Part shown: piece after piece, positions 10,483-27,487 of the stretch
Layout of the letters: each line of letters opens with the position of its first letter
How positions within the stretch are numbered: the stretch's first letter is position 1
NCBI GenBank assembly: GCA_040755235.1
Contig: JBFMBJ010000001.1
Location: 1 to 48,055 of the forward strand
Length of the DNA stretch: 48,055 nucleotides
Origin: Candidatus Omnitrophota bacterium
GTDB taxonomy: Bacteria > Omnitrophota > Gorgyraeia > Gygaellales > JBFMBJ01
Direction: 5' to 3'
Notes under the pieces: model-generated
Database searches by the model: none
Told to the model about the DNA's origin: nothing
What the model saw: the letters and a program-made list of their open reading frames with translations, nothing else
Made by a program: the position numbers and the translations under genes

Positions 10483-12909
10483 ATGACTAAGATTTGTTTC
10501 ATAATTGATAATTTAAAGATAGCGGGTGCGCAGAGGCATCTTTTAAGATTGACCAAAGGATTAACCAACAGGGGGTATTCTCCAGAGGTTATTTCCCTTG
10601 GCATTAATGATGAAAATTTAATTAAAGAGATAAAGGCGCCATTGGCTACATTTAAAATGGATTGTATCTGGAGGATGAGTTTTTGGCTGAATTTTATACA
10701 GTTAATTAAATTTATTTCTAAGCAAAGGCCGGTAATAGTCCATACTTACCTTAATACTTCTAATGTCTTTGGGGTTTTATCTGCTAAAATTGCTAAGGTT
10801 CCCATTATTTTCTCCTCGCGCAGAGATTTAGGCCAATTCCGCTCGAGGTTAATTGGCTTGTTAGAGCGTTTTACTGCACATCTTAGCGATAAAGTTGTTT
10901 GTGTTTCCAATGCTGTTCAAAATCATGTTATTGATTCAGAGCGAATTAGTAGAGAGAAAACGGCTGTTATATATAATGGAGTAGACGTAGATAGTTTGCG
11001 AGTTAACGAGTTGACGAGTTGGCGAGTTAGAAAAGAAATCGGAATAGGTGAAAATGAATTAGCAGTTGGAATGATAGCGACGATGGACAGGGAAGAAAAG
11101 GGGCATAAGGAATTCATTGAAGCAGCGGGTTTGGTTGTAAAAGAAATTCCGAACGTCAAATTTCTGCTTATCGGCGACGGTTTTCTTCGTCAAAAGTTAG
11201 AAAACGCAATACGTGATACCTGCCTTGCCGGCAGGCAGGCGCATGACGCAATACGAGGCAAAGTTTTATTTCTTGGTAAACGTAACGGCATACCAGAATT
11301 ATTATCCACAATGGATGTGTCGGTGAACGCTTCATATTCAGAAGGAATGTCCAATACAATTTTAGAGTCTATGGCAGCTGGAGTGCCAGTAGTAGCTACA
11401 GCAATAGATGGCAATCTCGAAACTGTCAAAAGCTTACAGTTTGATTACAGTGATTTAGATAAAGATTACAGTGATAAAAATTGTGCAACTGGGATACTCG
11501 TGCCGCCAAAAGAGCCACAAGCTATGGCAAAAGCTATTATAAAGATACTTAAAGATAAGGAATTAGCTGTGAAGATGGGTGAAAACGCGAGGCGATTAGT
11601 TTACGAAAAATTCTCTCTTGAAACAATGGTGAATAATTACGCTAAACTTTATCAAGATTTATCCGCGCCAATCCGCGTCCAAAACAATCCGCGCCAATCC
11701 GCGTCCACAGTGGGTTATATCGTTTCTCTTTTTCCCTGTTGGTCAGAAACCTTTATCTTAAATGAAATAATAGAGTTAAAGAGAAAAGGTATTGAAGTGA
11801 CTATATTCTCTATAAGAAAAGATTTGGAAGCATTTATTCAAGAGAAGTCAAAACTGCTTATAAAAAATACAATATATCCAGAAAAGCCAGGTGTATTTAG
11901 GTCATTTGTATTTTGGGCTGTAAGAAAACCAGTGACATTGCTTTCAATTTTCTGGTTGGTTGTCAGTAAAAGATATTCAAGCTCAAAAGTTCTACTTAAG
12001 AACATCTGGTGTATTTTTGTCGGTTGCTACTTTGCTACTATTGTAAAAAAAGAGAATATCAAAAACCTCCATGCACATTTTGCAACCTACCCAACTTTAG
12101 TAGCTTTGGTCATATCAAGATTGACTAAGATTAGTTATACTTTTACCAATCATGCTCATGACATATTCTTAGAAAAAGCTCTTTTAAAAGAAAAATCCAG
12201 AGATGCAAAAGCCATAGTTGCTATCTCAAATTATAATAAGCAATATCTGGATAATATTTGTCAAAATGGAGTTATAGATAAGACGCACGTCATTCATTGC
12301 GGCTTAGATTTAGCTGAATTTGTTAATTTAAACGTCAAGCATAAAGATAATACGATTTTGAGTATCGGCAGATTAACCAAAATGAAGGGTTTTGAATATC
12401 TTATTAAAGCTTGCAATCAAATTAAAAATCGCCTGCCTGTCCAATGCCGCATAATTGGCGATGGTCCTTTGAATGATGAATTGGAAAGGTTAATTATTAA
12501 TTTAGGAGTAAGGAGTAGCGTAAAATTAAAAGGGGTAACGGACAACAGTGAGATTAAGCAATTATTACAGGAAAGTGCTGTATTTATCATGTCCAGCGTC
12601 TGGGATGAGCAGGATGGCCAAGATGGCATCCCGATCGTATTAATGGAGGCAATGGCAGCAGGCGTGCCGGTGATAGGTTCAAATATTTCAGGCATACCCG
12701 AATTGATCCAGGATGGTCAGACAGGGCTGTTGGTTGAGCCAGGCAATGTTGTAGATTTGGCAAAGAAGATTGAGCTTTTGTTGAACGATAAAGATTTGCA
12801 GGCTCGCTTAGCTAAAGCAGGCAGGCGTAAGGTTGAAGAGGAATTTGATATTCATAAGAGTGTAGAGAAGCTAATTGAGGTATTTAACTTATCGAGCTGT
12901 CATACATAG
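10483..12909 (+). CDS. Two GT4 glycosyltransferase modules in one ORF (tandem fusion through a repeat linker)
   Basis: Module 1 has SEGMSNTILESMAAGVPVVATAIDGNLE. Module 2 starts like a complete WcaL-type GT (VGYIVSLFPCWSETFILNEIIELKRKGIEV) and has DGIPIVLMEAMAAGVPVIGSNISGIPELIQDGQTGLLV. The junction is the 21-nt direct repeat at 11661-11707. An in-frame GTG at 11710 could be an internal start. Confidence 0.8.
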   Translation: MTKICFIIDNLKIAGAQRHLLRLTKGLTNRGYSPEVISLGINDENLIKEIKAPLATFKMDCIWRMSFWLNFIQLIKFISKQRPVIVHTYLNTSNVFGVLSAKIAKVPIIFSSRRDLGQFRSRLIGLLERFTAHLSDKVVCVSNAVQNHVIDSERISREKTAVIYNGVDVDSLRVNELTSWRVRKEIGIGENELAVGMIATMDREEKGHKEFIEAAGLVVKEIPNVKFLLIGDGFLRQKLENAIRDTCLAGRQAHDAIRGKVLFLGKRNGIPELLSTMDVSVNASYSEGMSNTILESMAAGVPVVATAIDGNLETVKSLQFDYSDLDKDYSDKNCATGILVPPKEPQAMAKAIIKILKDKELAVKMGENARRLVYEKFSLETMVNNYAKLYQDLSAPIRVQNNPRQSASTVGYIVSLFPCWSETFILNEIIELKRKGIEVTIFSIRKDLEAFIQEKSKLLIKNTIYPEKPGVFRSFVFWAVRKPVTLLSIFWLVVSKRYSSSKVLLKNIWCIFVGCYFATIVKKENIKNLHAHFATYPTLVALVISRLTKISYTFTNHAHDIFLEKALLKEKSRDAKAIVAISNYNKQYLDNICQNGVIDKTHVIHCGLDLAEFVNLNVKHKDNTILSIGRLTKMKGFEYLIKACNQIKNRLPVQCRIIGDGPLNDELERLIINLGVRSSVKLKGVTDNSEIKQLLQESAVFIMSSVWDEQDGQDGIPIVLMEAMAAGVPVIGSNISGIPELIQDGQTGLLVEPGNVVDLAKKIELLLNDKDLQARLAKAGRRKVEEEFDIHKSVEKLIEVFNLSSCHT
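10993..11030. repeat. In-frame octamer array (NNCGAGTT x4), copy a
   Basis: agtttgcgagttaacgagttgacgagttggcgagttag encodes SLRVNELTSWRVR. It is 35/38 identical to 13945-13982 in a paralogous GT4, whereas the flanking coding DNA is much less similar. Confidence 0.85.
11204..11255. repeat. In-frame ACGCAATACG pair (42-nt spacing) around a GC-rich hairpin
   Basis: acgcaatacg occurs at 11204-11213 and 11246-11255. The central cctgcc-ttgcc-ggcagg lies at 11219-11235. The segment encodes AIRDTCLAGRQAHDAIRG in a GT4 linker that is normally shorter. Confidence 0.8.
11443..11475. repeat. In-frame GATTACAGTGAT direct repeat, 21-nt period
   Basis: Perfect 12-mers at 11443-11454 and 11464-11475 encode DYSD twice, inside the GT4 E...G loop. 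The reverse complement atcactgtaatc occurs at 18878-18889. Confidence 0.85.
11661..11707. repeat. Perfect 21-nt direct repeat (atccgcgccaatccgcgtcca x2, 5-nt spacer) at the GT4-GT4 junction
   Basis: Units at 11661-11681 and 11687-11707. Each unit is itself two ATCCGCGNCA decamers. The region is translated as SAPIRVQNNPRQSAS. Confidence 0.9.
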
Positions 12910-12991
12910 TCATAGGTAGTCATAAAATGGTCATACAATTGTAAAAGATACTATAAGTATATTGTAATAAATAGTCATACATTGTAAAAAG
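12899..12991. repeat. GTCATA array (left flank of 4HB cassette 2)
   Basis: GTCATA at 12899, 12909, 12919, 12930 (10-11 nt phasing) and 12974. gtcatacaattgtaaaag and gtcatacattgtaaaaag are near duplicates. Stops occur in all three + frames, and the stop of the upstream GT (12907) lies inside the array. Confidence 0.85.
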
Positions 12992-12995
12992 GAGA

Positions 12996-13385
12996 ATGGA
13001 ATTGGCGGGAGATATAAGAGATTTTGATGATTTGGAAGTATATCAGCTGGCTTTAGAATTGGCAGATTGGATATATGATTTAACAAGCAATTTTCCTAGT
13101 GAAGAAAGGTTCAATGTTACCTCGCAGATAAGGGATGCTGCAACTTCAATTGGCGCAAATATAGCCGAAGGCTATGGTCGGTTTCACTATAAAGAAAACA
13201 TTCAATTTTGTAGACAAGCAAGAGGCTCTTTATCTGAGACAAAGCACTTTATGATTTTTAGCAATAAACGCAAGTATATTTCTGATGATATTTACAAAGA
13301 ATTTTTACAAAAATACAAGCAATTACAAATAAAAATTAACAATTATATTAATTCAATTGGTAAGAAGAATAGTGACGATGTATGA
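12996..13385 (+). CDS. Four-helix-bundle protein (23S rRNA IVS protein / Avd-like family)
   Basis: DFDDLEVYQLALEL..., RDAATSIGANIAEGYGRFHYKENIQFCRQARGSLSETKH. SD aaaggag lies 5 nt upstream. Confidence 0.85.
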   Translation: MELAGDIRDFDDLEVYQLALELADWIYDLTSNFPSEERFNVTSQIRDAATSIGANIAEGYGRFHYKENIQFCRQARGSLSETKHFMIFSNKRKYISDDIYKEFLQKYKQLQIKINNYINSIGKKNSDDV

Positions 13386-13417
13386 CAACATTTGACAATG
13401 GTATGACAATATATGAC
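13381..13417. repeat. TATGAC array (right flank of 4HB cassette 2; inverse of the GTCATA array)
   Basis: TATGAC at 13381, 13402 and 13412, plus TTTGAC at 13391 (10-11 nt phasing). The 4HB stop TGA 13383-13385 lies in the first unit. Confidence 0.85.
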
Positions 13418-14548
13418 GATTCACGTGCTTCGGCGCGAAAAATTAACATCCTGCACGTGATTTGGTCCTTAGAAAAAGGCGGCGCGGAAAGATTCTTGGT
13501 TTTGCTGGTTAAAAATTTTGACCAAAGCCGTTTCAATTCCATTGTTTGTTGCCTTAATTGGAAAGGCGAATGGGCAAGCGAACTTGAGGAAAAAGGAATC
13601 AAGGTTATTGCCTTAAATAAAAAAGGTAAGTTCGACATCTGTGTAATCTATAGAATAATCTGTGTAATCAGACAATATAAAATTGATATTGTAAATACTC
13701 ATCTTTGGGCAGCAGATTGCTTAGGAAGGGTTGCGGCTATTTTTGGGGGAGTGCCCATAATTATAAGCACAGTCCAAAATGTAGATATCTGGAAGAAGTT
13801 TTGGCATAAAATCATAGATAAGATGTTGGCGAACCGAACAACCAAATTTATTGCAGTTTCAAAAGCAGTTAAGGAGTTTTTGATTAATACAGAAAAGATT
13901 CCTGAAGAAAAAATTGAGATAATACCGAATGCGATTGATGCAGAAAGTTTGCGAGTTAACGAGTTGGCGGGTTTGCGAGTTAGAGAAGATTTAGGGATTA
14001 AAAACGAAGAGATAGTGCTGACTGTAATTGGAAGATTGGTTGAACAAAAGGGCCATAAATATTTGTTTGAAGCCTTGAGTATGCTGGATGGCAGGTATAG
14101 AGTGAAATTACTGGTGGTTGGTGATGGGCCGCTTAGAGAAAGTTTACAGTTTAAAGTTAACAGTTTACAGTTAGAGAATAAAATTCAATTCTTAGGGCAG
14201 AGAAGAGACATGGCAGAAATATTTAATGCGAGTGATGGTGTGATTTTGCCTTCGCTTTATGAGGGGTTGCCTGTAAGCATTTTAGAGGCGATGGCTGTTG
14301 GTAAGCCTGTAATCGCAACAGATGTTGGCGGCACTTGCGAACTTGTTAAAGATGGAGAAACTGGATTTTTGGCACAAGCAAAAAACAGCAAAAGCTTAGC
14401 ATCTAATATAGAAAAACTTTTAACTTCACCAGATAAAGGAAAAAAAATGGGAGAGAGAGGCAAGGAATTGGTTAATAATGCCTTTTCTATACAGGCTATA
14501 GTTAAAAAAACAGCAGATTTATATCTCTCACTTCTCGGTAACGGTTAG
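13382..14548 (+). CDS. Family 4 glycosyltransferase
   Basis: INILHVIWSLEKGGAE..., YEGLPVSILEAMAVGKPVIATDVGGTCELVKDGETGFL. The first ~15 codons (MTTFDNGMTIYDD) are a translation of the TATGAC array, so the true start is probably downstream (ATG 13403 or later). Confidence 0.8.
   Translation: MTTFDNGMTIYDDSRASARKINILHVIWSLEKGGAERFLVLLVKNFDQSRFNSIVCCLNWKGEWASELEEKGIKVIALNKKGKFDICVIYRIICVIRQYKIDIVNTHLWAADCLGRVAAIFGGVPIIISTVQNVDIWKKFWHKIIDKMLANRTTKFIAVSKAVKEFLINTEKIPEEKIEIIPNAIDAESLRVNELAGLRVREDLGIKNEEIVLTVIGRLVEQKGHKYLFEALSMLDGRYRVKLLVVGDGPLRESLQFKVNSLQLENKIQFLGQRRDMAEIFNASDGVILPSLYEGLPVSILEAMAVGKPVIATDVGGTCELVKDGETGFLAQAKNSKSLASNIEKLLTSPDKGKKMGERGKELVNNAFSIQAIVKKTADLYLSLLGNG
13637..13669. repeat. 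In-frame ATCTGTGTAATC direct repeat, 21-nt period
   Basis: Perfect 12-mers at 13637-13648 and 13658-13669 encode ICVIYRIICVI. Confidence 0.85.
13945..13982. repeat. In-frame octamer array (NNCGAGTT-type), copy b
   Basis: agtttgcgagttaacgagttggcgggtttgcgagttag encodes SLRVNELAGLRVR. It is 35/38 identical to 10993-11030. Confidence 0.85.
14141..14172. repeat. In-frame AGTTTACAGTT direct repeat, 21-nt period
   Basis: Units at 14141-14151 and 14162-14172 encode SLQFKVNSLQL. They share the TTACAG core with 11433-11475. Confidence 0.8.
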
Positions 14549-16293: not shown

Positions 16294-16311
16294 CTTATTT
16301 GTCTGAATTTG

Positions 16312-16326
16312 TCCCGCCCTTTTGGC
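16312..16326. repeat. Left arm of a perfect 15-bp inverted repeat around the GIY-YIG gene
   Basis: tcccgcccttttggc is the exact reverse complement of 16601-16615. Confidence 0.95.
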
Positions 16327-16337
16327 TGGAGGTAGGT

Positions 16338-16595
16338 ATGCATTATATTTATTTGTTAAAAAGCGAGAAAGACAACTATATTTATATTGGCAATACCAAT
16401 GATTTAGAAAGAAGATTGGTTGAGCATAATAGCGCTAACAATACAGCTACTAAGAAGCATAGACCTTTTAAATTAGTTTATTACGAAGCTTATTTAGATA
16501 AGAGGGATGCTTTAGATAGAGAAAATAAATTAAAACATCACGGAAGCGTTATTGGACATCTGAAGAAACGATTAAAATATAGTTTATCTTGTTAA
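16338..16595 (+). CDS. Small stand-alone GIY-YIG (URI-domain) nuclease family protein
   Basis: HYIYLLKSEKDNYIYIGNTNDLERRLVEHNS. SD ggagg at 16328-16332. The ORF-track start (TTG 16299) only adds a translation of the left IR arm. Confidence 0.85.
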   Translation: MHYIYLLKSEKDNYIYIGNTNDLERRLVEHNSANNTATKKHRPFKLVYYEAYLDKRDALDRENKLKHHGSVIGHLKKRLKYSLSC

Positions 16596-18763: not shown

Positions 18764-18891
18764 AATACTGAAGAACTACACTTCGGCAGGCAAGTTCCGC
18801 CCTTGATTGCAGAGATTAATAAAAACAGATTACTACGATTAAAACTAGAGAATGTAATCTCTGGAATCTTATGAAAAATCACTGTAATCAT

Positions 18892-19596
18892 ATGTTAAAA
18901 ATCTTAATGTATCATTCTGTCGGTTCGCTGAACTTAAGCGAAGTCGGCACAGAGCTTTATTCTGTCTCTGAAGAGAACTTCCGTCAGCAAATGAATTTTT
19001 TGCGCAATGCGCACGACGCAATACACAATACGCTAATAACCTTCGATGACGGCCTCCTCGACAACTACACAACTGCTTTTCCGATTCTTAAGGAGTTTGA
19101 CATTAAAGCATATTTTTTTATTCTAACTTCTAAGGTCAGGGAAGAGGGGTACATGAATTGGGAACAGATTAAGGAGTTGCATAATGCAGGCATGACAATT
19201 GGTTCACACGGGATGACGCACAGACTTTTAACTGAATTAAGCGAGAATGAATTATATTATGAATTATCCCAGTCTAAGAAAATACTTGAAGATAATTTAA
19301 GCCAACCTGTTGAGAATTTTTCAATTCCCAGAGGATTTTGTAATAAAAGAATAGAAGAAGCAGCAAAGAAAATTGGCTACAAAGCAATTTTTACTTCTAA
19401 TATCAAGGATAACAATGGGTTTAGAATCGGCAGAATCCCGGTAAAACGCGATTGGGATCTTAATCATTTTAAAAGTGTTTTGAATAATGGACTGTCTCCA
19501 AGAGAAAAAGTGGAGGAATTTGTTAAGCGTATAAGCAAGGAATTCCTCGGCGCAAGGGTTTACGATAAGATTAGGAGTAGGATTCTTAGTAGATAA
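18892..19596 (+). CDS. Polysaccharide deacetylase (NodB homology domain)
   Basis: ILMYHSV, ITFDDGLLDNY, GSHGMTH. The start was moved to ATG 18892 because the 7 upstream codons translate a repeat. Confidence 0.8.
   Translation: MLKILMYHSVGSLNLSEVGTELYSVSEENFRQQMNFLRNAHDAIHNTLITFDDGLLDNYTTAFPILKEFDIKAYFFILTSKVREEGYMNWEQIKELHNAGMTIGSHGMTHRLLTELSENELYYELSQSKKILEDNLSQPVENFSIPRGFCNKRIEEAAKKIGYKAIFTSNIKDNNGFRIGRIPVKRDWDLNHFKSVLNNGLSPREKVEEFVKRISKEFLGARVYDKIRSRILSR
19002..19033. repeat. In-frame copy of the GCGCAATRCGCACGACGCA...CAATACG dispersed repeat
   Basis: 27/32 identical to the intergenic copy at 23597-23628. It encodes RNAHDAIHNTL. The same AHDAI peptide is encoded at 11236-11256 in a GT4. 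Confidence 0.8.
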
Positions 19597-19598
19597 GA

Positions 19599-19646
19599 GT
19601 CATAAGTAGTCATAAGGTAGTCATACAATGGTCATAAATTGTCATA
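19599..19646. repeat. GTCATA array (left flank of the toxin-antitoxin cassette)
   Basis: GTCATA at 19599, 19609, 19620, 19631 and 19641 (10-11 nt phasing). It is visibly alignable with 12909-12945. Confidence 0.9.
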
Positions 19647-19711
19647 CGATTGTATGAGGCGAGCGTTACATAAATTCAGACTCGATATCTTAAAAATCCT
19701 TACTTTCGTCC

Positions 19712-19761: not shown

Positions 19762-20022
19762 ATGACAATTACAATGACAGCAAAGAATCAAATAACCATA
19801 CCTAAGAAGATCACAAATGCTTTGGGCTTAGGGAAGGGGTCTATGTTCGAGGTAGAGGTCTCTAGAGATGGGATAGAGCTTATTCCTCTGGAGACAAAAG
19901 AAAGGCAGTTCACAGATGAGGAATACGTGAAATTAGAGACCCTTGCAGCCAAAGAAAAGGGGAAAGAAAAACATGTAACAAAAAGGTTCATCGATAATTT
20001 AAAAAAGGGAAAATCTAATTAA
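19762..20022 (+). CDS. AbrB/MazE/SpoVT-family antitoxin
   Basis: MTAKNQITIPKKITNALGLGKGSMFEVEV (swapped-hairpin motif). It overlaps the downstream gene by 1 nt (TAATG). Confidence 0.75.
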   Translation: MTITMTAKNQITIPKKITNALGLGKGSMFEVEVSRDGIELIPLETKERQFTDEEYVKLETLAAKEKGKEKHVTKRFIDNLKKGKSN

Positions 20023-20330
20023 TGTCTTTACGCCTTTATTACAGGCCTTCTTTTAAAAGAAGCATCAAGCGTTTAGGATATGAACAGAAGAAAACAGTAG
20101 GACTGATAATTGAATCTTTAGCTGTTTATTATTCTCGTGAGTGTAATCTGCTAGAGGCACAAAAGATAGCACCACGATTTTTTTATAAACAACTAAGAAA
20201 GCCCTATTATGAAGCCGGTATCGAAGGAACCATCCGAGTGATTATAAGACGAGAGGGTGAAAATTGTATTGTAGTATTAGCCGGGAATCATGACCAAATA
20301 AAACAATTTCTGGCCAGCGTACAGTGTTGA
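20022..20330 (+). CDS. Putative type II toxin (RelE/ParE-like small basic protein)
   Basis: Size, position after the AbrB antitoxin and translational coupling support the call. YRPSFKRSIKRLGYEQKKTVGLIIESL resembles RelE/ParE N-termini. The family assignment is tentative. Confidence 0.5.
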   Translation: MSLRLYYRPSFKRSIKRLGYEQKKTVGLIIESLAVYYSRECNLLEAQKIAPRFFYKQLRKPYYEAGIEGTIRVIIRREGENCIVVLAGNHDQIKQFLASVQC

Positions 20331-20373: not shown

Positions 20374-20412
20374 CATGACAATCTTGTGACAACAATATGA
20401 CAACCTTATGAC
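20374..20412. repeat. (C/T)ATGAC array (right flank of the toxin-antitoxin cassette)
   Basis: catgaca at 20374, tgtgac at 20385, tatgac at 20396 and 20407 (11-nt phasing). It is alignable with 13381-13417. Confidence 0.85.
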
Positions 20413-20421
20413 AATATATCG

Positions 20422-22753: not shown

Positions 22754-23566
22754 ATGAATAAAGCTAACATTGGTAAATTAGTAGCATTAGCTGGATTAAC
22801 TGCGCTTGCCTACATTCCTACCTTTGCCTGGATGATTGGCAGATGGACTGCCAAAGATACATATTACAGCCATGGTTTTTTAGTGCCATTAATTAGTATT
22901 TTTTTAATTTGGCAAAAGAGGCAAGATTTAAAGAAACTAAAGATTAAGCCTTCTAATCTTGGCTGGGTATTTTTTGGCTCTGGTATATTAATTCATGCGA
23001 TAAGCGCGTTATGGAGAGTGTATTTCTCGTCGGGATTTTCTTTAATTATAGTTCTAATCGGGCTGGTTTTATTATTTTTAGGCAAGGAATTTTTAAAAGA
23101 AACTTTATTCGCAATACTTTTCTTCGCCTTTATGATTCCTTTACCTCTGGTTGCTATTGCCAACATAAGTTTTAAACTAAAAATTTTTGCCGCTAAAATT
23201 TCAACCGTTATCATTAATAAATTAGGCGTTCCGGCAATAAGAGACGGCAGTGTGATAAAAACAATGCATTCTTATTTGGTAGTAGAGGACCCTTGCTCTG
23301 GGATAAGAAGCTTAATTGCTCTTATTGCCCTGGGTGCATTGATGGCATATTTTAGTAACATTTCCAAGCTTAAAAAGACAATTCTTTTTATATCCTCAAT
23401 TCCTATCGCAATCGCAACAAACGTAATCAGGATAGTTACTTTGTCGTTAGTAAGTGAAATGTATGGAGCGAAATTAGCAACCGGTACATTTCATAATATA
23501 ATGGGTGTTTTGGTTTTTGTCTTTGCATTTATTGGTCTGGCCTTGATAGCCAAGATCCTGGAGTAG
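22754..23566 (+). CDS. Exosortase (EpsH/Xrt family transpeptidase)
   Basis: YYSHGFLVPLISIFLIW, catalytic-Cys motif EDPCSGIRSL, NVIRIVTL, and multiple TM helices. Confidence 0.9.
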   Translation: MNKANIGKLVALAGLTALAYIPTFAWMIGRWTAKDTYYSHGFLVPLISIFLIWQKRQDLKKLKIKPSNLGWVFFGSGILIHAISALWRVYFSSGFSLIIVLIGLVLLFLGKEFLKETLFAILFFAFMIPLPLVAIANISFKLKIFAAKISTVIINKLGVPAIRDGSVIKTMHSYLVVEDPCSGIRSLIALIALGALMAYFSNISKLKKTILFISSIPIAIATNVIRIVTLSLVSEMYGAKLATGTFHNIMGVLVFVFAFIGLALIAKILE

Positions 23567-23569
23567 TAG

Positions 23570-23630
23570 CATATCGTGTATAGCGTATTGAGTATTGCGC
23601 AATACGCACGACGCACAACGCAATACGAAA
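23570..23630. repeat. Cargo-less palindromic element of the CGTATTG / CAATACG family
   Basis: The left half is cgtattgagtattgcg and the right half is cgcaatacgcacgacgcacaacgcaatacg. The central perfect 14-bp palindrome gtattgcgcaatac lies at 23592-23605. Confidence 0.85.
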
Positions 23631-27391: not shown

Positions 27392-27396
27392 TTGAA

Positions 27397-27435
27397 CACG
27401 AATTCTCACGAATTACACACTAATTTTCACGAATT
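27397..27435. repeat. CACGAATT x3 intergenic motif array
   Basis: cacgaatt at 27397, 27407 and 27428 (spacings of 10 and 21 nt). Confidence 0.8.
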
Positions 27436-27487
27436 ATCAGCGAGTTTAAAAAGCCACGGAGATTTCAAAAGAAGGAGGTGAAAAAGA

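Follow-up and report, generated by a model that had tools for sequence, protein, structure and literature searches.

The host gene and its two added segments

The window, the whole 48,055-nucleotide stretch of DNA that was analysed, comes from an Omnitrophota genome (G000; 1.39 Mb, 34% GC, 230 contigs, 75.7% complete). The open reading frame list, the translation and Pfam searches place a gene with two GT4 glycosyltransferase modules sharing one frame at 10483–12909 on the forward strand. As had been predicted, the frame stays open through every repeat segment, running uninterrupted over 808 amino acids. Pfam reported Glyco_transf_4 (E = 4.3e-34) and Glycos_transf_1 (E = 1.4e-74), both above the gathering score, in that order from N- to C-terminus and over two stretches each. 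The two modules are connected via a repeat tract at 11661–11707, which may once have been intergenic.

Module 1, approximately residues 1–392, holds both added segments. Its AF2 model (pLDDT 92.5, pTM 0.90) shows Rossmann halves with alternating strand and helix, i.e. the GT-B fold. The C-terminal motif (E..E, G-G/N-x-E) is also present: in alignment A1, which contains the query and 33 other sequences, E287 and E295 are invariant and E313 nearly so. The two-Rossmann GT-B architecture and the C-terminal motifs are common to the host protein and to the solved GT4 structures 2jjm/3mbo ('glycosyl transferase, group 1 family') and 8dvw (PglA-type). Unlike these, the host protein carries a second, fused GT4 module as well as two added loops of 9 and 16 residues.

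Comparison with the 33 homologues and a solved GT4 structure located the extra residues at 247–255 (+9) and 317–332 (+16). At site 1 none of the 33 homologues has residues in the 8-column block beneath LAGRQAHD, and the linker from GDG to FLG is 29 residues long in the query against 20 in nearly all others. At site 2 nothing lies beneath SLQFDYSDLDKDYSDK in 32 of the 33; the other, P0017, has four extra residues. The original prediction had proposed an alignment of this kind to define the insert boundaries. It found no segments of equal length in any of the homologues at site 1 or in 32/33 at site 2, and the estimate of about 16 residues added at site 2 proved to be exactly 16 against those 32 and against 2jjm. 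Both gaps reappear in the alignment to 2jjm/3mbo. In the AF2 model the mean pLDDT per ten-residue block falls below 80 solely around the two inserts, and residues 321–330 of insert 2 fall below 50. Both segments are confirmed as real in-frame insertions in module 1.

Insert 1 and the PAL21 palindrome

The core of insert 1 is CCTGCCTTGCCGGCAGGCAGG, a 21-nt near-palindrome at 11219–11239 on the forward strand, read as (T)CLAGRQA. It includes the hairpin cctgcc-ttgcc-ggcagg, which was correctly noted between two copies of ACGCAATACG and lies at 11219–11235. It belongs to a family with the form CCTGCCT(T)GCCGGCAGGCAGG, whose 20-nt member, a perfect palindrome, is called PAL20 here and whose 21-nt member is called PAL21; the window copy is an exact PAL21 that is absent from the 33 homologues at this position. 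Stop codons are absent from all six frames of PAL21. The extra T was considered as a mutation restoring the frame of a 20-nt palindrome, and this was rejected because exact copies of the 21-nt form make up a widespread family of their own.

Repeat analysis and the codon view place the direct pair of ACGCAATACG around PAL21 at 11204–11255 on the forward strand, with units at 11204–11213 and 11246–11255. The predicted distance of 42 nt between the unit starts is thus correct. From 11205 the block consists of seven heptamers, CGCAATA CGTGATA CCTGCCT TGCCGGC AGGCAGG CGCATGA CGCAATA, and the spacing of the units minus PAL21 is 21 nt. A similar array, CGCAATA CGCACGA CGCACAA CGCAATA, with CGCAATACG spaced 21 nt, lies at 23598–23627, within a gene-less inverted array of CGCAATA/CGTATTG heptamers (23561–23627, no strand assigned) which repeat analysis gives as the closest relative of the ACGCAATACG units in the window. 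All six PAL21 copies in genome G003 have CGCTATC-type heptamers on both sides, giving AIRYP-CLAGRQA-LSAIR. Rather than a target-site duplication, the ACGCAATACG pair forms a heptamer-array frame like those found around other PAL21 copies. Removing the 42 nt would leave a linker of 15 residues against 20 in the homologues, five residues short, and the empty sites described below have no target duplication; a simple duplication around the hairpin fails on both counts. The direct repeats that adjoin PAL copies are also variable, being 7 to 12 nt long and 0–16 nt away. Site 1 gained 27 nt net, neither 21 nor 42, so the event was not one clean insertion into a linker of standard length. Either native codons were partly replaced, or the flanking array was there before PAL21.

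As RNA, the hairpin stretch has no folding advantage over composition-matched shuffles (z = 0.26; 121 of 200 are at least as stable), so the significance of the PAL hairpin lies in its sequence identity to a repeat family and not in its folding energy; hairpin stability was discarded as an argument for PAL. Rfam at the gathering threshold gave no matches on the window or on 10 repeat loci. The pattern CCTGCC..GGCAGG is found at six loci in G000, where about 0.03 would be expected by an estimate from base composition, and is the most frequent of the 136 GC-rich hairpins in that genome. PAL21 is present in 47/151 genomes of the order and PAL20 in 20/41, the reversed-pattern control giving 0 matches in every genome. 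Exact PAL21 was found in at least 122 stretches from Bacteroidota, Patescibacteria, Gammaproteobacteria, Ignavibacteria, Omnitrophota, Planctomycetota, Nitrospirota and Spirochaetia, and is letter-identical across at least 8 named bacterial groups. Literature searches on the PAL strings and on intergenic palindromic repeats in Omnitrophota found no occurrence of either.

The two forms differ in where they lie. Among sampled copies in the order, 27 of 33 PAL21 but only 2 of 16 PAL20 are in open frames of at least 150 aa (Fisher p = 4.8e-6), against 986/1640 random positions; 'open frame' is a stop-to-stop proxy, and copies near frame starts, such as those in the pilin-like L094 and L108, may precede the true start. 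Outside the CPR the coding share of PAL21 is lower (Bacteroidota, 9/27). Host frames identified by Pfam in the order are HisA/F, TruA, LpxK, AroA, DapF, GltB, Lnt, MnmA and one GT4, while hosts across phyla include SHMT, LeuRS, TsaD, FtsZ, MurB, FolD, TrmD and three more GT4s. Hosts of the GT4 type are found repeatedly (L092, L293, L314 and L355), and the copy in L355 lies in the same linker as here. The copies use all six frames, in both orientations, and so give different peptides. PAL21 is also in-frame in essential genes of isolate genomes on long contigs.

Presence or absence of an exact block, with no target duplication, was seen at two sites. The AroA genes of G019 and of its 96%-identical orthologue in G037 differ by exactly 21 nt, and in G000 itself (contig C195) a tRNA-like stretch has two copies, one with PAL20 and one without. 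A further 42 nt is missing from the AroA of G022, and E. coli EPSPS can be aligned on both sides of the AroA insert. A Saccharibacteria SHMT has 10 additional residues, SLPAGKAGTG, relative to 3pgy. For the GT4 gene itself the closest match in a search of 5.8 billion proteins for an orthologue is only 47% identical, too distant for an empty-site comparison.

Candidate mobilising genes were examined. Y1 transposase genes do not track PAL20, being present in 16/20 PAL20-bearing and 16/21 PAL20-free genomes, and none of six Y1 loci has a PAL within 1.5 kb; a REP/RAYT link for PAL was rejected on these grounds. A role for PAL as the regular arm of GIY-YIG cassettes was likewise rejected, since a full PAL adjoins 1 of 32 small GIY-YIG genes. 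PAL halves are found in the flanks of 7 of the 32. PAL also differs from classical MITEs, which have terminal inverted repeats and a target-site duplication of fixed length, in that no duplication was found in the two empty-site comparisons.

Insert 2 and the GATTAC arms of GxxExxY cassettes

Insert 2 comprises the 48 nt at 11431–11478 on the forward strand that encode SLQFDYSDLDKDYSDK, as delimited by alignment A1, by 2jjm and by the GATTACNNNGATT pair family. Its layout is a leader agcttacagttt, then GATTACAGTGATT, an 8-nt spacer, GATTACAGTGAT and finally aaa. The two occurrences of GATTACAGTGAT reported earlier, at 11443 and 11464 with a 21-nt period, are both there, and the spacer separating the GATTAC units is not duplicated. 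The stretch 11443–11476 is a direct pair of GATTACNNNGATT with 21-nt spacing, unit 2 being mismatched in its final base, and this corresponds to the arm of GxxExxY cassettes, a direct GATTACNNNGATT pair spaced 21–24 nt. Set against the 5' arm of a GxxExxY cassette remnant in G003, insert 2 is identical at about 33 of 40 positions by our own count. Its RNA folds better than shuffles (z = -2.57; 4/200 shuffles).

With up to one mismatch allowed, 30 GATTAC pairs were counted in G000 and none in the reversed genome; a rough estimate from base composition gives a chance expectation of about 6e-4 per genome. Only two of the 30 lie deep in genes, and these are the two GT4 genes of this window. Solo arms have fixed positions between co-directional genes, just past stops and 17–35 nt ahead of starts. 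Within the order 11/41 genomes have the arm, and across phyla it is present in at least 129 stretches. In G027 a TIGR04256 gene (E = 7.9e-37) is enclosed by inverted GATTAC arms, and in G003 such arms enclose decayed remnants. A protein of G003 contains an independent in-frame copy which is an insertion with respect to two 58%-identical homologues. GxxExxY is a PD-(D/E)XK-type nuclease family. A search of G000, 75.7% complete, for a TIGR04256/PF13366 (GxxExxY) gene gave no match, and the arms occur in this genome only as gene-less copies. The GT4 copy has no inverted arms around a TIGR04256 gene; being a single arm, with neither partner nor cargo, it is a derivative and not a cassette. PAL21 is nested in GATTAC arms on contigs C59 and C61 of G000.

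One solo arm, GATTACAGTGATT tttcataa GATTCCAGAGATT, is found at 18856–18889 on the reverse strand, at the 5' end of a polysaccharide deacetylase gene. It is a pair with one mismatch and 21-nt spacing, and TRF reports period 21 at 18856–18903. The inverted 12-mer GATTACAGTGAT which had been noticed at 18878–18889 is part of this arm, so the site is a relative of insert 2. With the ATG at 18871 as start, the 12-mer is just within the deacetylase frame; the next ATG, at approximately 18892, lies just downstream of it.

The original prediction also implied that the motifs are repeat insertions or duplications local to the gene and called for genome-wide counts. These counts confirmed that the motifs are repeated in coding and non-coding DNA and overturned the local origin: the hairpin is a dispersed 21-nt element and the GATTACAGTGAT pair an arm of a dispersed cassette family.

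The paralogous GT4 gene has repeat patches of its own. The repeat census and A1 gave the second deep-coding GATTAC pair at 13636–13669 on the reverse strand, comprising GATTACACAGATT twice with 21-nt spacing and read ICVIYRIICVI. On the forward strand at 14139–14173 is an AGTTTAC heptamer array of 4.6 copies (TRF score 50–56, codon view) which encodes SLQFKVNSLQLE and occupies the same GDG-to-FLG linker as PAL21 in the first gene. Neither patch adds length relative to the homologues in A1, so simple insertion fails to explain them. The linker of the first gene had been described as longer than in typical GT4 enzymes and in the paralogue. This is true for the homologues, with a net gain of nine residues, but treating the paralogue as simply shorter ignores its in-frame patches. 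Close direct repeats of at least 10 nt number three in each of the two GT4 genes, placing them among the top 9 of 1350 ORFs, 1200 of which have none. Short tandem arrays are abundant in the genome as a whole (1207 against 671 in a Markov shuffle).

Origin of the inserts and comparison with known repeats

The best explanation of both segments, to which we give a probability of about 80%, is that they are passenger insertions of dispersed selfish-type short repeats, insert 1 being a copy of PAL21 and insert 2 a solo arm of the GxxExxY cassette. The family identity, the insertion status, the coding/non-coding contrast and the two empty sites on which this builds are direct observations. At site 1 a PAL21 copy would have been set between two units of a short heptamer-type array, PAL21 probably acting as a mobile unit whose presence or absence affects exactly 21 nt and involves no target duplication. 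A PAL20 copy would shift the frame, and this form is almost restricted to intergenic DNA. At site 2 a solo arm, the direct GATTACNNNGATT pair 21 nt apart, would derive from the inverted arms around small GxxExxY nuclease genes in related genomes. The copies may have arrived via break-and-copy or via single-strand insertion driven by a putative enzyme, and the added peptides are presumably neutral loops. The inserts would survive because they preserve the reading frame and fall at the surface, in loops of the GT-B fold. What they add to the glycosyltransferase would then be read as passenger DNA, not as determinants of its specificity.

Alternatively, the segments may be kept for a function, as an internal site for a regulator, for RNase III-type processing or for pausing at a hairpin within a long polysaccharide operon, or as new surface loops altering the choice of partner or substrate. 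The strong conservation of the sequences across phyla, the recurrence of GT4 enzymes as hosts, the concentration of repeats in both GT4 genes, the fixed intergenic positions of solo GATTAC arms and the folding of insert 2 are all consistent with this. However, the hosts are unrelated housekeeping enzymes, entered at loops or inter-domain linkers that have no common context; all frames and both orientations are used; near-identical orthologues differ in presence or absence; and the inserts are low-confidence parts of the model and match no Rfam family. We consider functional retention unlikely.

Local replication slippage or tandem duplication in the gene, with the likeness to other loci due to coincidence or shared composition, is more improbable still. 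Both features are short direct repeats whose periods are divisible by 3 and 7, short tandem arrays abound in the genome, and the ACGCAATACG units are 21 nt apart once the palindrome is removed, all as slippage would give. Yet hundreds of copies with the identical 21-nt core exist in other genes and phyla, the 30 copies of the GATTAC pair family far exceed the control and the rough chance estimate, and the spacer between the GATTAC units is not duplicated. Slippage is thus largely refuted by the family matches. The view that the frame is a pseudogene in decay, a chimera from faulty assembly or an artefact of binning, with the inserts as debris, would fit the fragmentary assembly, its incompleteness and the joining of the modules via a perhaps formerly intergenic tract, but it is scarcely credible for a frame open over 808 codons at 34% GC, with intact catalytic-domain motifs, Pfam E-values to 1e-74, a confident model and the same elements in-frame in essential genes of isolate genomes on long contigs.

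The reading of the inserts as passenger repeats can be extended to PAL21 itself, for which we rate the chances as about even. PAL21 may be a distinct kind of mobile DNA, a seven-codon, stop-free palindrome specialised for colonising coding genes, including the essential SHMT, LeuRS, TsaD, FtsZ, AroA and RpoC. It would move as an exact 21-nt block without target duplication, its 20-nt sister would be purged from genes by frameshift selection, and the GT4 linker would be one landing among others. Its letter-identical occurrence in distant phyla would mean either that it has repeatedly spread horizontally or that it relies on a host enzyme that is widely conserved. If this is true, we know of no smaller mobile element that resides within genes, and PAL21 would be an unrecognised source of inserted loops in the proteins of uncultured bacteria. 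It would explain odd short insertions such as LPAGKAG, CLAGRQA and PALPAGR, which upset sequence alignments and structure predictions for proteins of Omnitrophota, CPR and Bacteroidota. Comparing the 21-nt form with the 20-nt form would also amount to a natural experiment, showing which loops in essential proteins can accommodate seven added residues.

In-frame colonisation of genes by selfish repeats is, as far as we know, known chiefly from Rickettsia; here a far smaller element would colonise core enzymes in-frame across many phyla. The Rickettsia palindromic elements (RPEs) are described in a review of MITEs as dispersed palindromes of about 150 bp, confined to Rickettsia, that insert in-frame into unrelated metabolic genes, where they add a peptide at places compatible with the fold, and that are also intergenic (PMC10969869). 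PAL21 resembles the RPEs in behaviour only, as a dispersed palindromic repeat found in-frame in unrelated genes. It differs in being 21 nt or seven codons long, identical across several phyla, used in six frames and without a conserved peptide of its own, and so does not belong to this class of element of about 150 bp encoding a conserved peptide.

The REP/REPIN repeats with their RAYT (Y1) transposases are short, GC-rich, dispersed and extragenic palindromes that cluster with the RAYT gene (PMC3116915). PAL is likewise a short, GC-rich, dispersed palindrome, and its insertion without target duplication would fit single-strand HUH-type transposition. It falls outside the REP/REPIN-RAYT group in that none of the six Y1_Tnp loci has a PAL nearby and the presence of Y1 does not track that of PAL20.

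The SDRs of Nostoc punctiforme (Elhai et al., 2008) are reportedly mobile, hairpin-forming repeats of 21–27 nt, often within tandem heptamer repeats or nested in other small elements. PAL21 would be similar in its 21 nt, in the heptamer-type arrays of the GT4 gene and of all six G003 copies, and in its nesting in GATTAC arms. PAL21 is in another phylum and presumably has a different sequence; we know of no description of cross-phylum identity or of predominance in coding frames for SDRs.

Hairpin-flanked small-gene cassettes, with GxxExxY/TIGR04256, PF05635 four-helix-bundle or GIY-YIG genes, and the ORF-bearing intervening sequences of 23S rRNA provide the comparison for insert 2. Several hairpin-flanked small-gene cassettes lie inside the window, and the GATTAC pair is one type of cassette arm. 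Unlike the cassettes, the GT4 copy is one in-frame arm, without cargo gene or partner arm, and because a single arm lacks a partner the cassette hairpin is impossible there.

Two in-frame insertions in a GT4 glycosyltransferase gene

The open frame at 10483-12909 contains two GT4 glycosyltransferase modules and, as the original prediction had it, runs uninterrupted across its repeats for 808 codons. It is part of a polysaccharide gene cluster in a fragmentary genome (G000; 1.39 Mb, 34% GC, 75.7% complete) and its closest named protein relatives carry the label Candidatus Omnitrophica/Omnitrophota. The predicted repeat positions were correct, with ACGCAATACG at 11204 and 11246 and GATTACAGTGAT at 11443 and 11464, the latter with its reverse complement at 18878. 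The GC-rich hairpin also had the sequence described, its near-palindrome lying at 11219-11239.

Module 1 was aligned with 32 of the 120 listed homologues (38–47% identical) and with the paralogous GT4 gene from 13382. Both segments proved to be insertions in module 1 relative to the 33 other sequences, as had been proposed. At the first site all 33 are gapped under LAGRQAHD, and the GDG-to-FLG linker is 29 residues long in module 1 versus 20 in nearly all of the others. At the second site 32 of the 33 are empty under SLQFDYSDLDKDYSDK and one listed protein, P0017, has four additional residues. The solved GT4 chains closest by sequence (2jjm/3mbo) show both gaps likewise. An AlphaFold2 model of module 1 from this alignment had a pLDDT of 92.5 and a pTM of 0.90, and confidence dipped only near residues 241-260 (block means 77 and 73) and 321-330 (<50), which are the two inserts. 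Given the gaps in the homologues and solved chains and the local loss of confidence, both inserts are additions at the surface that the GT-B fold tolerates while staying intact. Insert 2 begins four residues past the nearly invariant Glu313 and occupies a turn at that helix's far end; this turn is longer in another homologue too.

The junction of the two modules (11661-11707) is a repeat tract with two copies of ATCCGCGCCAATCCGCGTCCA 26 nt apart, translated as SAPIRVQNNPRQSAST, and a typical GT4 N-terminus (VGYIVSLFP) starts at GTG 11710 just past it. The 808-residue ‘fusion’ may be two genes linked via a stop-free intergenic repeat. AATCCGCG occurs 45 times in G000.

Distribution and probable mobility of PAL21 and PAL20

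Of 136 GC-rich hairpins with six-base stems in G000, CCTGCC..GGCAGG was the most frequent, with six loci; in contigs C59 and C61 it sits between the two GATTACNNNGATT units of a GATTAC pair, the type of direct pair seen in insert 2. The palindrome in the GT4 gene is a perfect 20-nt palindrome (CCTGCCTRCCGGYAGGCAGG, PAL20) with one extra T. Within the order 20 of 41 genomes have PAL20, with as many as 43 copies, and the control gave no matches. The extra T as a frame-restoring change was rejected, since the exact 21-mer (PAL21) forms a family in its own right. Allowing one mismatch, 47 of the order's 151 genomes have PAL21, again with no control matches, and the species-genome collection contains exact copies in at least 122 stretches. 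Titles among the matches listed include Bacteroidota (isolates among them), Patescibacteria, Gammaproteobacteria, Ignavibacteria, Omnitrophota, Planctomycetota, Nitrospirota and Spirochaetia.

All six frames of PAL21 are free of stop codons. Coding status was assigned from stop-to-stop frames of at least 150 codons with 60-nt margins, plus Pfam, rather than from curated gene calls. In a sample of loci from eight of the order's genomes, long open frames contained 27 of 33 distinct PAL21 copies versus 2 of 16 PAL20 copies (Fisher p = 4.8e-6, the genomes being related and the counts non-independent); random central positions of the same loci lay in such frames in 986 of 1640 trials. The two forms differ in their tolerance within genes. 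PAL20 would be purged from genes by frameshift selection, and the peptides added by such elements would be neutral, Gly-, Ala-, Pro- and Arg-rich loops.

A Pfam family was found for 22 of the 24 distinct PAL21 frames in the order. The element lies inside or between domains of HisA/F, TruA, LpxK, PyrK-like, AroA, MiaB-like, CobA-HemD, AIR-synthase-like, GltB, MnmA and another GT4 protein, and also in DapF (two copies) and Lnt (three tandem copies, 28 nt apart). It is read in all frames (CLAGRQA, LPCRQAG, PALPAGR, CLPARQG and LPAGKAG), and the GT4 reading, CLAGRQA, was seen again in G003 and in one giant G002 protein. Among the matches listed from other phyla, 39 of 75 copies with adequate flanks lay in long open frames (17 of 21 in CPR, 9 of 27 in Bacteroidota), 28 of these 39 frames with Pfam families. 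Hosts there include SHMT, LeuRS (two copies), TsaD (two), FtsZ, MurB, FolD, TrmD, the RpoC N-terminus and three more GT4 enzymes. In one gammaproteobacterial GT4 (L355) PAL21 occupies the GDG-to-FLG linker, as it does in the GT4 of the window.

Two of the sampled loci had further features. The three copies in the Lnt (apolipoprotein N-acyltransferase) frame (L109, G025:C27:1273-1349) have a period of 28 nt (21 + 7) and are read in successive different frames as PALPAGR, CLAGRQA and LPCRQAG. A single 625-codon frame (L086, G027:C219) holds NAPRTase domains and an isochorismatase domain, with PAL21 and other GC hairpins between them, and may be another two-gene fusion via a stop-free repeat spacer.

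In two empty-site comparisons PAL appears or disappears as an exact block. AroA of G019 reads ...AIGSPT-LPCRQAG-TALRP..., and its orthologue in the congeneric G037, 96% identical, is without precisely these 21 nt, its empty site being ccaacc/acggcc with no duplication. The AroA of G022 (94% identical) lacks an additional 42-nt hairpin-bearing block, three AroA genes at 63–64% identity lack both, and E. coli EPSP synthase is alignable on both sides of the PAL21 insert. A Saccharibacteria SHMT has ten additional residues, SLPAGKAGTG, versus a solved SHMT. In contig C195 of G000 two copies of one tRNA-like stretch flank a small GIY-YIG gene, and an exact PAL20 splits the upstream copy, again with no duplication. 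The stretch, cgcggggtggagcagtctggtagctcgcaa, presumably resembles the 5' half of initiator tRNA, and the arrangement, at 573-890, looks like a cassette inserted in or beside a tRNA gene.

The ACGCAATACG pair as a target-site duplication was rejected, the linker without the 42 nt being 15 residues versus 20 in homologues. Without PAL21 only, the linker is 22 residues and the ACGCAATACG units are 21 nt apart, a spacing common to CGCAATACG in a gene-less inverted heptamer array (23598-23627) and to GATTAC pairs. The block from 11205 parses into seven heptamers. In G003 each of the six PAL21 copies has CGCTATC heptamers on either side and reads AIRYP-CLAGRQA-LSAIR, strikingly similar to AIRDT-CLAGRQA-HDAIR in the window. 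Among the flanks at 22 palindrome loci there are direct repeats of 7–12 nt, at distances that vary, and inverted repeats specific to the locus. The simplest reading of these flanks would be that PAL tends to sit between units of short-motif arrays, or carries a bit of such an array along.

Insert 2, GATTAC-pair arms and repeat hot spots

The GATTAC pair is a dispersed element in G000, as PAL is, with a 21–24 nt spacing and 21 exact-pattern matches; at up to one mismatch there were 30 pairs versus none in the reversed genome. A genome-wide count in coding and non-coding DNA, by which the original prediction could be checked, placed 27 of the 30 in short spacers or at gene edges, typically directly past a stop codon and 17–35 nt before the next start, and three in called ORFs, one of them (C3:1520) only 60 nt from the start of a crude call. 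The two deep-genic pairs are both within the GT4 genes of the window. Within the order 11 of 41 genomes have the pattern, with no control matches, and across phyla it is present in at least 129 stretches (Omnitrophota, Desantisbacteria, Elusimicrobia, Bacteroidetes, Brocadiaceae and others).

In C19, C20 and C134 two facing pairs form an inverted element of ∼87 nt; in C19 and C20 one arm has GATTACAGTGATT as its first unit. A further solo arm lies at 18856-18889 in the window. In G027 two arms bracket a 130-codon gene matching TIGR04256 ‘GxxExxY protein’ (E = 7.9e-37), whose start codon is inside the 5' arm, and in G003 the arms bracket truncated remnants of a GxxExxY gene. Other GxxExxY copies have arms made of different 10–11-nt motifs, and no GxxExxY gene was found in the 75.7% complete G000. 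Insert 2 belongs to this cassette family as an arm and, counted by eye, matches the G003 5' arm at ∼33 of 40 positions. G003 also has an independent in-frame copy, read as KKQITQITKADYTDKKQ within a large protein's N-terminal domain, at a site that is a gap in the two closest homologues (58% identical).

The protein P0123 (L050/L070, G003:C3, and relatives) has an N-terminal domain that is highly multi-copy, heads very large ORFs (up to 4778 codons) and occurs in 23 of 41 order genomes; relative to its closest homologue it carries a 13-residue low-complexity insertion, YQPSAVSHQPSAE. A solo array of ACACGAATTCTCACGAATTAC with period 21 lies at 27396-27436 in the window, and its CACGAAT units are similar to the arms on one GxxExxY cassette of G007 (L022).

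Both GT4 genes of the window are hot spots for exact direct repeats (≥10 nt, within 45 nt). Each gene has three, a number reached or exceeded by only nine of the 1350 crude ORFs in G000; 1200 have none. The paralogue has a GATTAC pair (13636-13669), an AGTTTAC heptamer array in its GDG-to-FLG linker (14139-14173) and an N-terminus encoded by a TGACAA array, each with no net gain in length, and for these patches simple insertion is insufficient as an explanation. CGAGTTAA-type octamer arrays encode LRVNELTSWRVR in the first GT4 gene (10999-11029) and LRVNELAGLRVR in the paralogue (13947-13985). These stretches are far closer in DNA than the remainder of the two genes (31% identical proteins), which hints at a common repeat patch or paralogue conversion.

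The polysaccharide cluster is rich in small cassettes (PF05635 four-helix-bundle genes, a GIY-YIG gene) between inverted motif arrays. GTCATA and inverse TATGAC/TGACAA arrays with 10–11-nt periods flank a PF05635 gene (12996-13385; arrays 12898-12990 and 13373-13420) and a 102-residue ORF with no family match (20022-20330; arrays 19593-19653 and 20375-20414). The array downstream of the former encodes the paralogue's N-terminus, MTTFDNGMTIYDD. A small GIY-YIG-type ORF at 16299-16595 lies within the inverted repeat cccgcccttttggc / gccaaaagggcggg, and several of the seven GIY-YIG matches in G000 have similar right ends, ‘ttaattcg’. The frequent 14-mers ACCCCGTTAGAAAT (19 copies), AATCCGAAATCCGA (11) and ACCCCGCCCTTCCT (12) point to further dispersed families, and periods of 7 and 14 predominate in the intergenic tandem arrays.

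Mobilisation and known systems

A Y1 (IS200/RAYT-type) transposase as mobiliser of PAL would be compatible with hairpin insertion lacking duplication. However, Y1 presence does not follow PAL, being seen in 16 of 20 PAL20-bearing and 16 of 21 PAL20-free genomes, and PAL was near none of six Y1 loci. GIY-YIG genes as regular partners were rejected, 1 of 32 being PAL-flanked. Rfam gave no match to the window or the repeat loci sampled, and as RNA the GT4 hairpin stretch folded no better than shuffles.

No literature with the PAL strings or on such repeats in Omnitrophota was found in a search of main texts. Membership tests placed PAL outside both REP/RAYT elements and classical MITEs. The small dispersed repeats of Nostoc, a subject of Elhai in 2008, are reportedly 21–27 nt long and nested in heptamer repeats, and PAL21 resembles them in behaviour as so described. 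A likeness in behaviour also exists to the Rickettsia palindromic elements (RPEs), which insert in frame into metabolic genes according to a review (PMC10969869). What is new in PAL21 is that it is much smaller than RPEs and identical across phyla, and that a sister form, PAL20, exposes the frame constraint.
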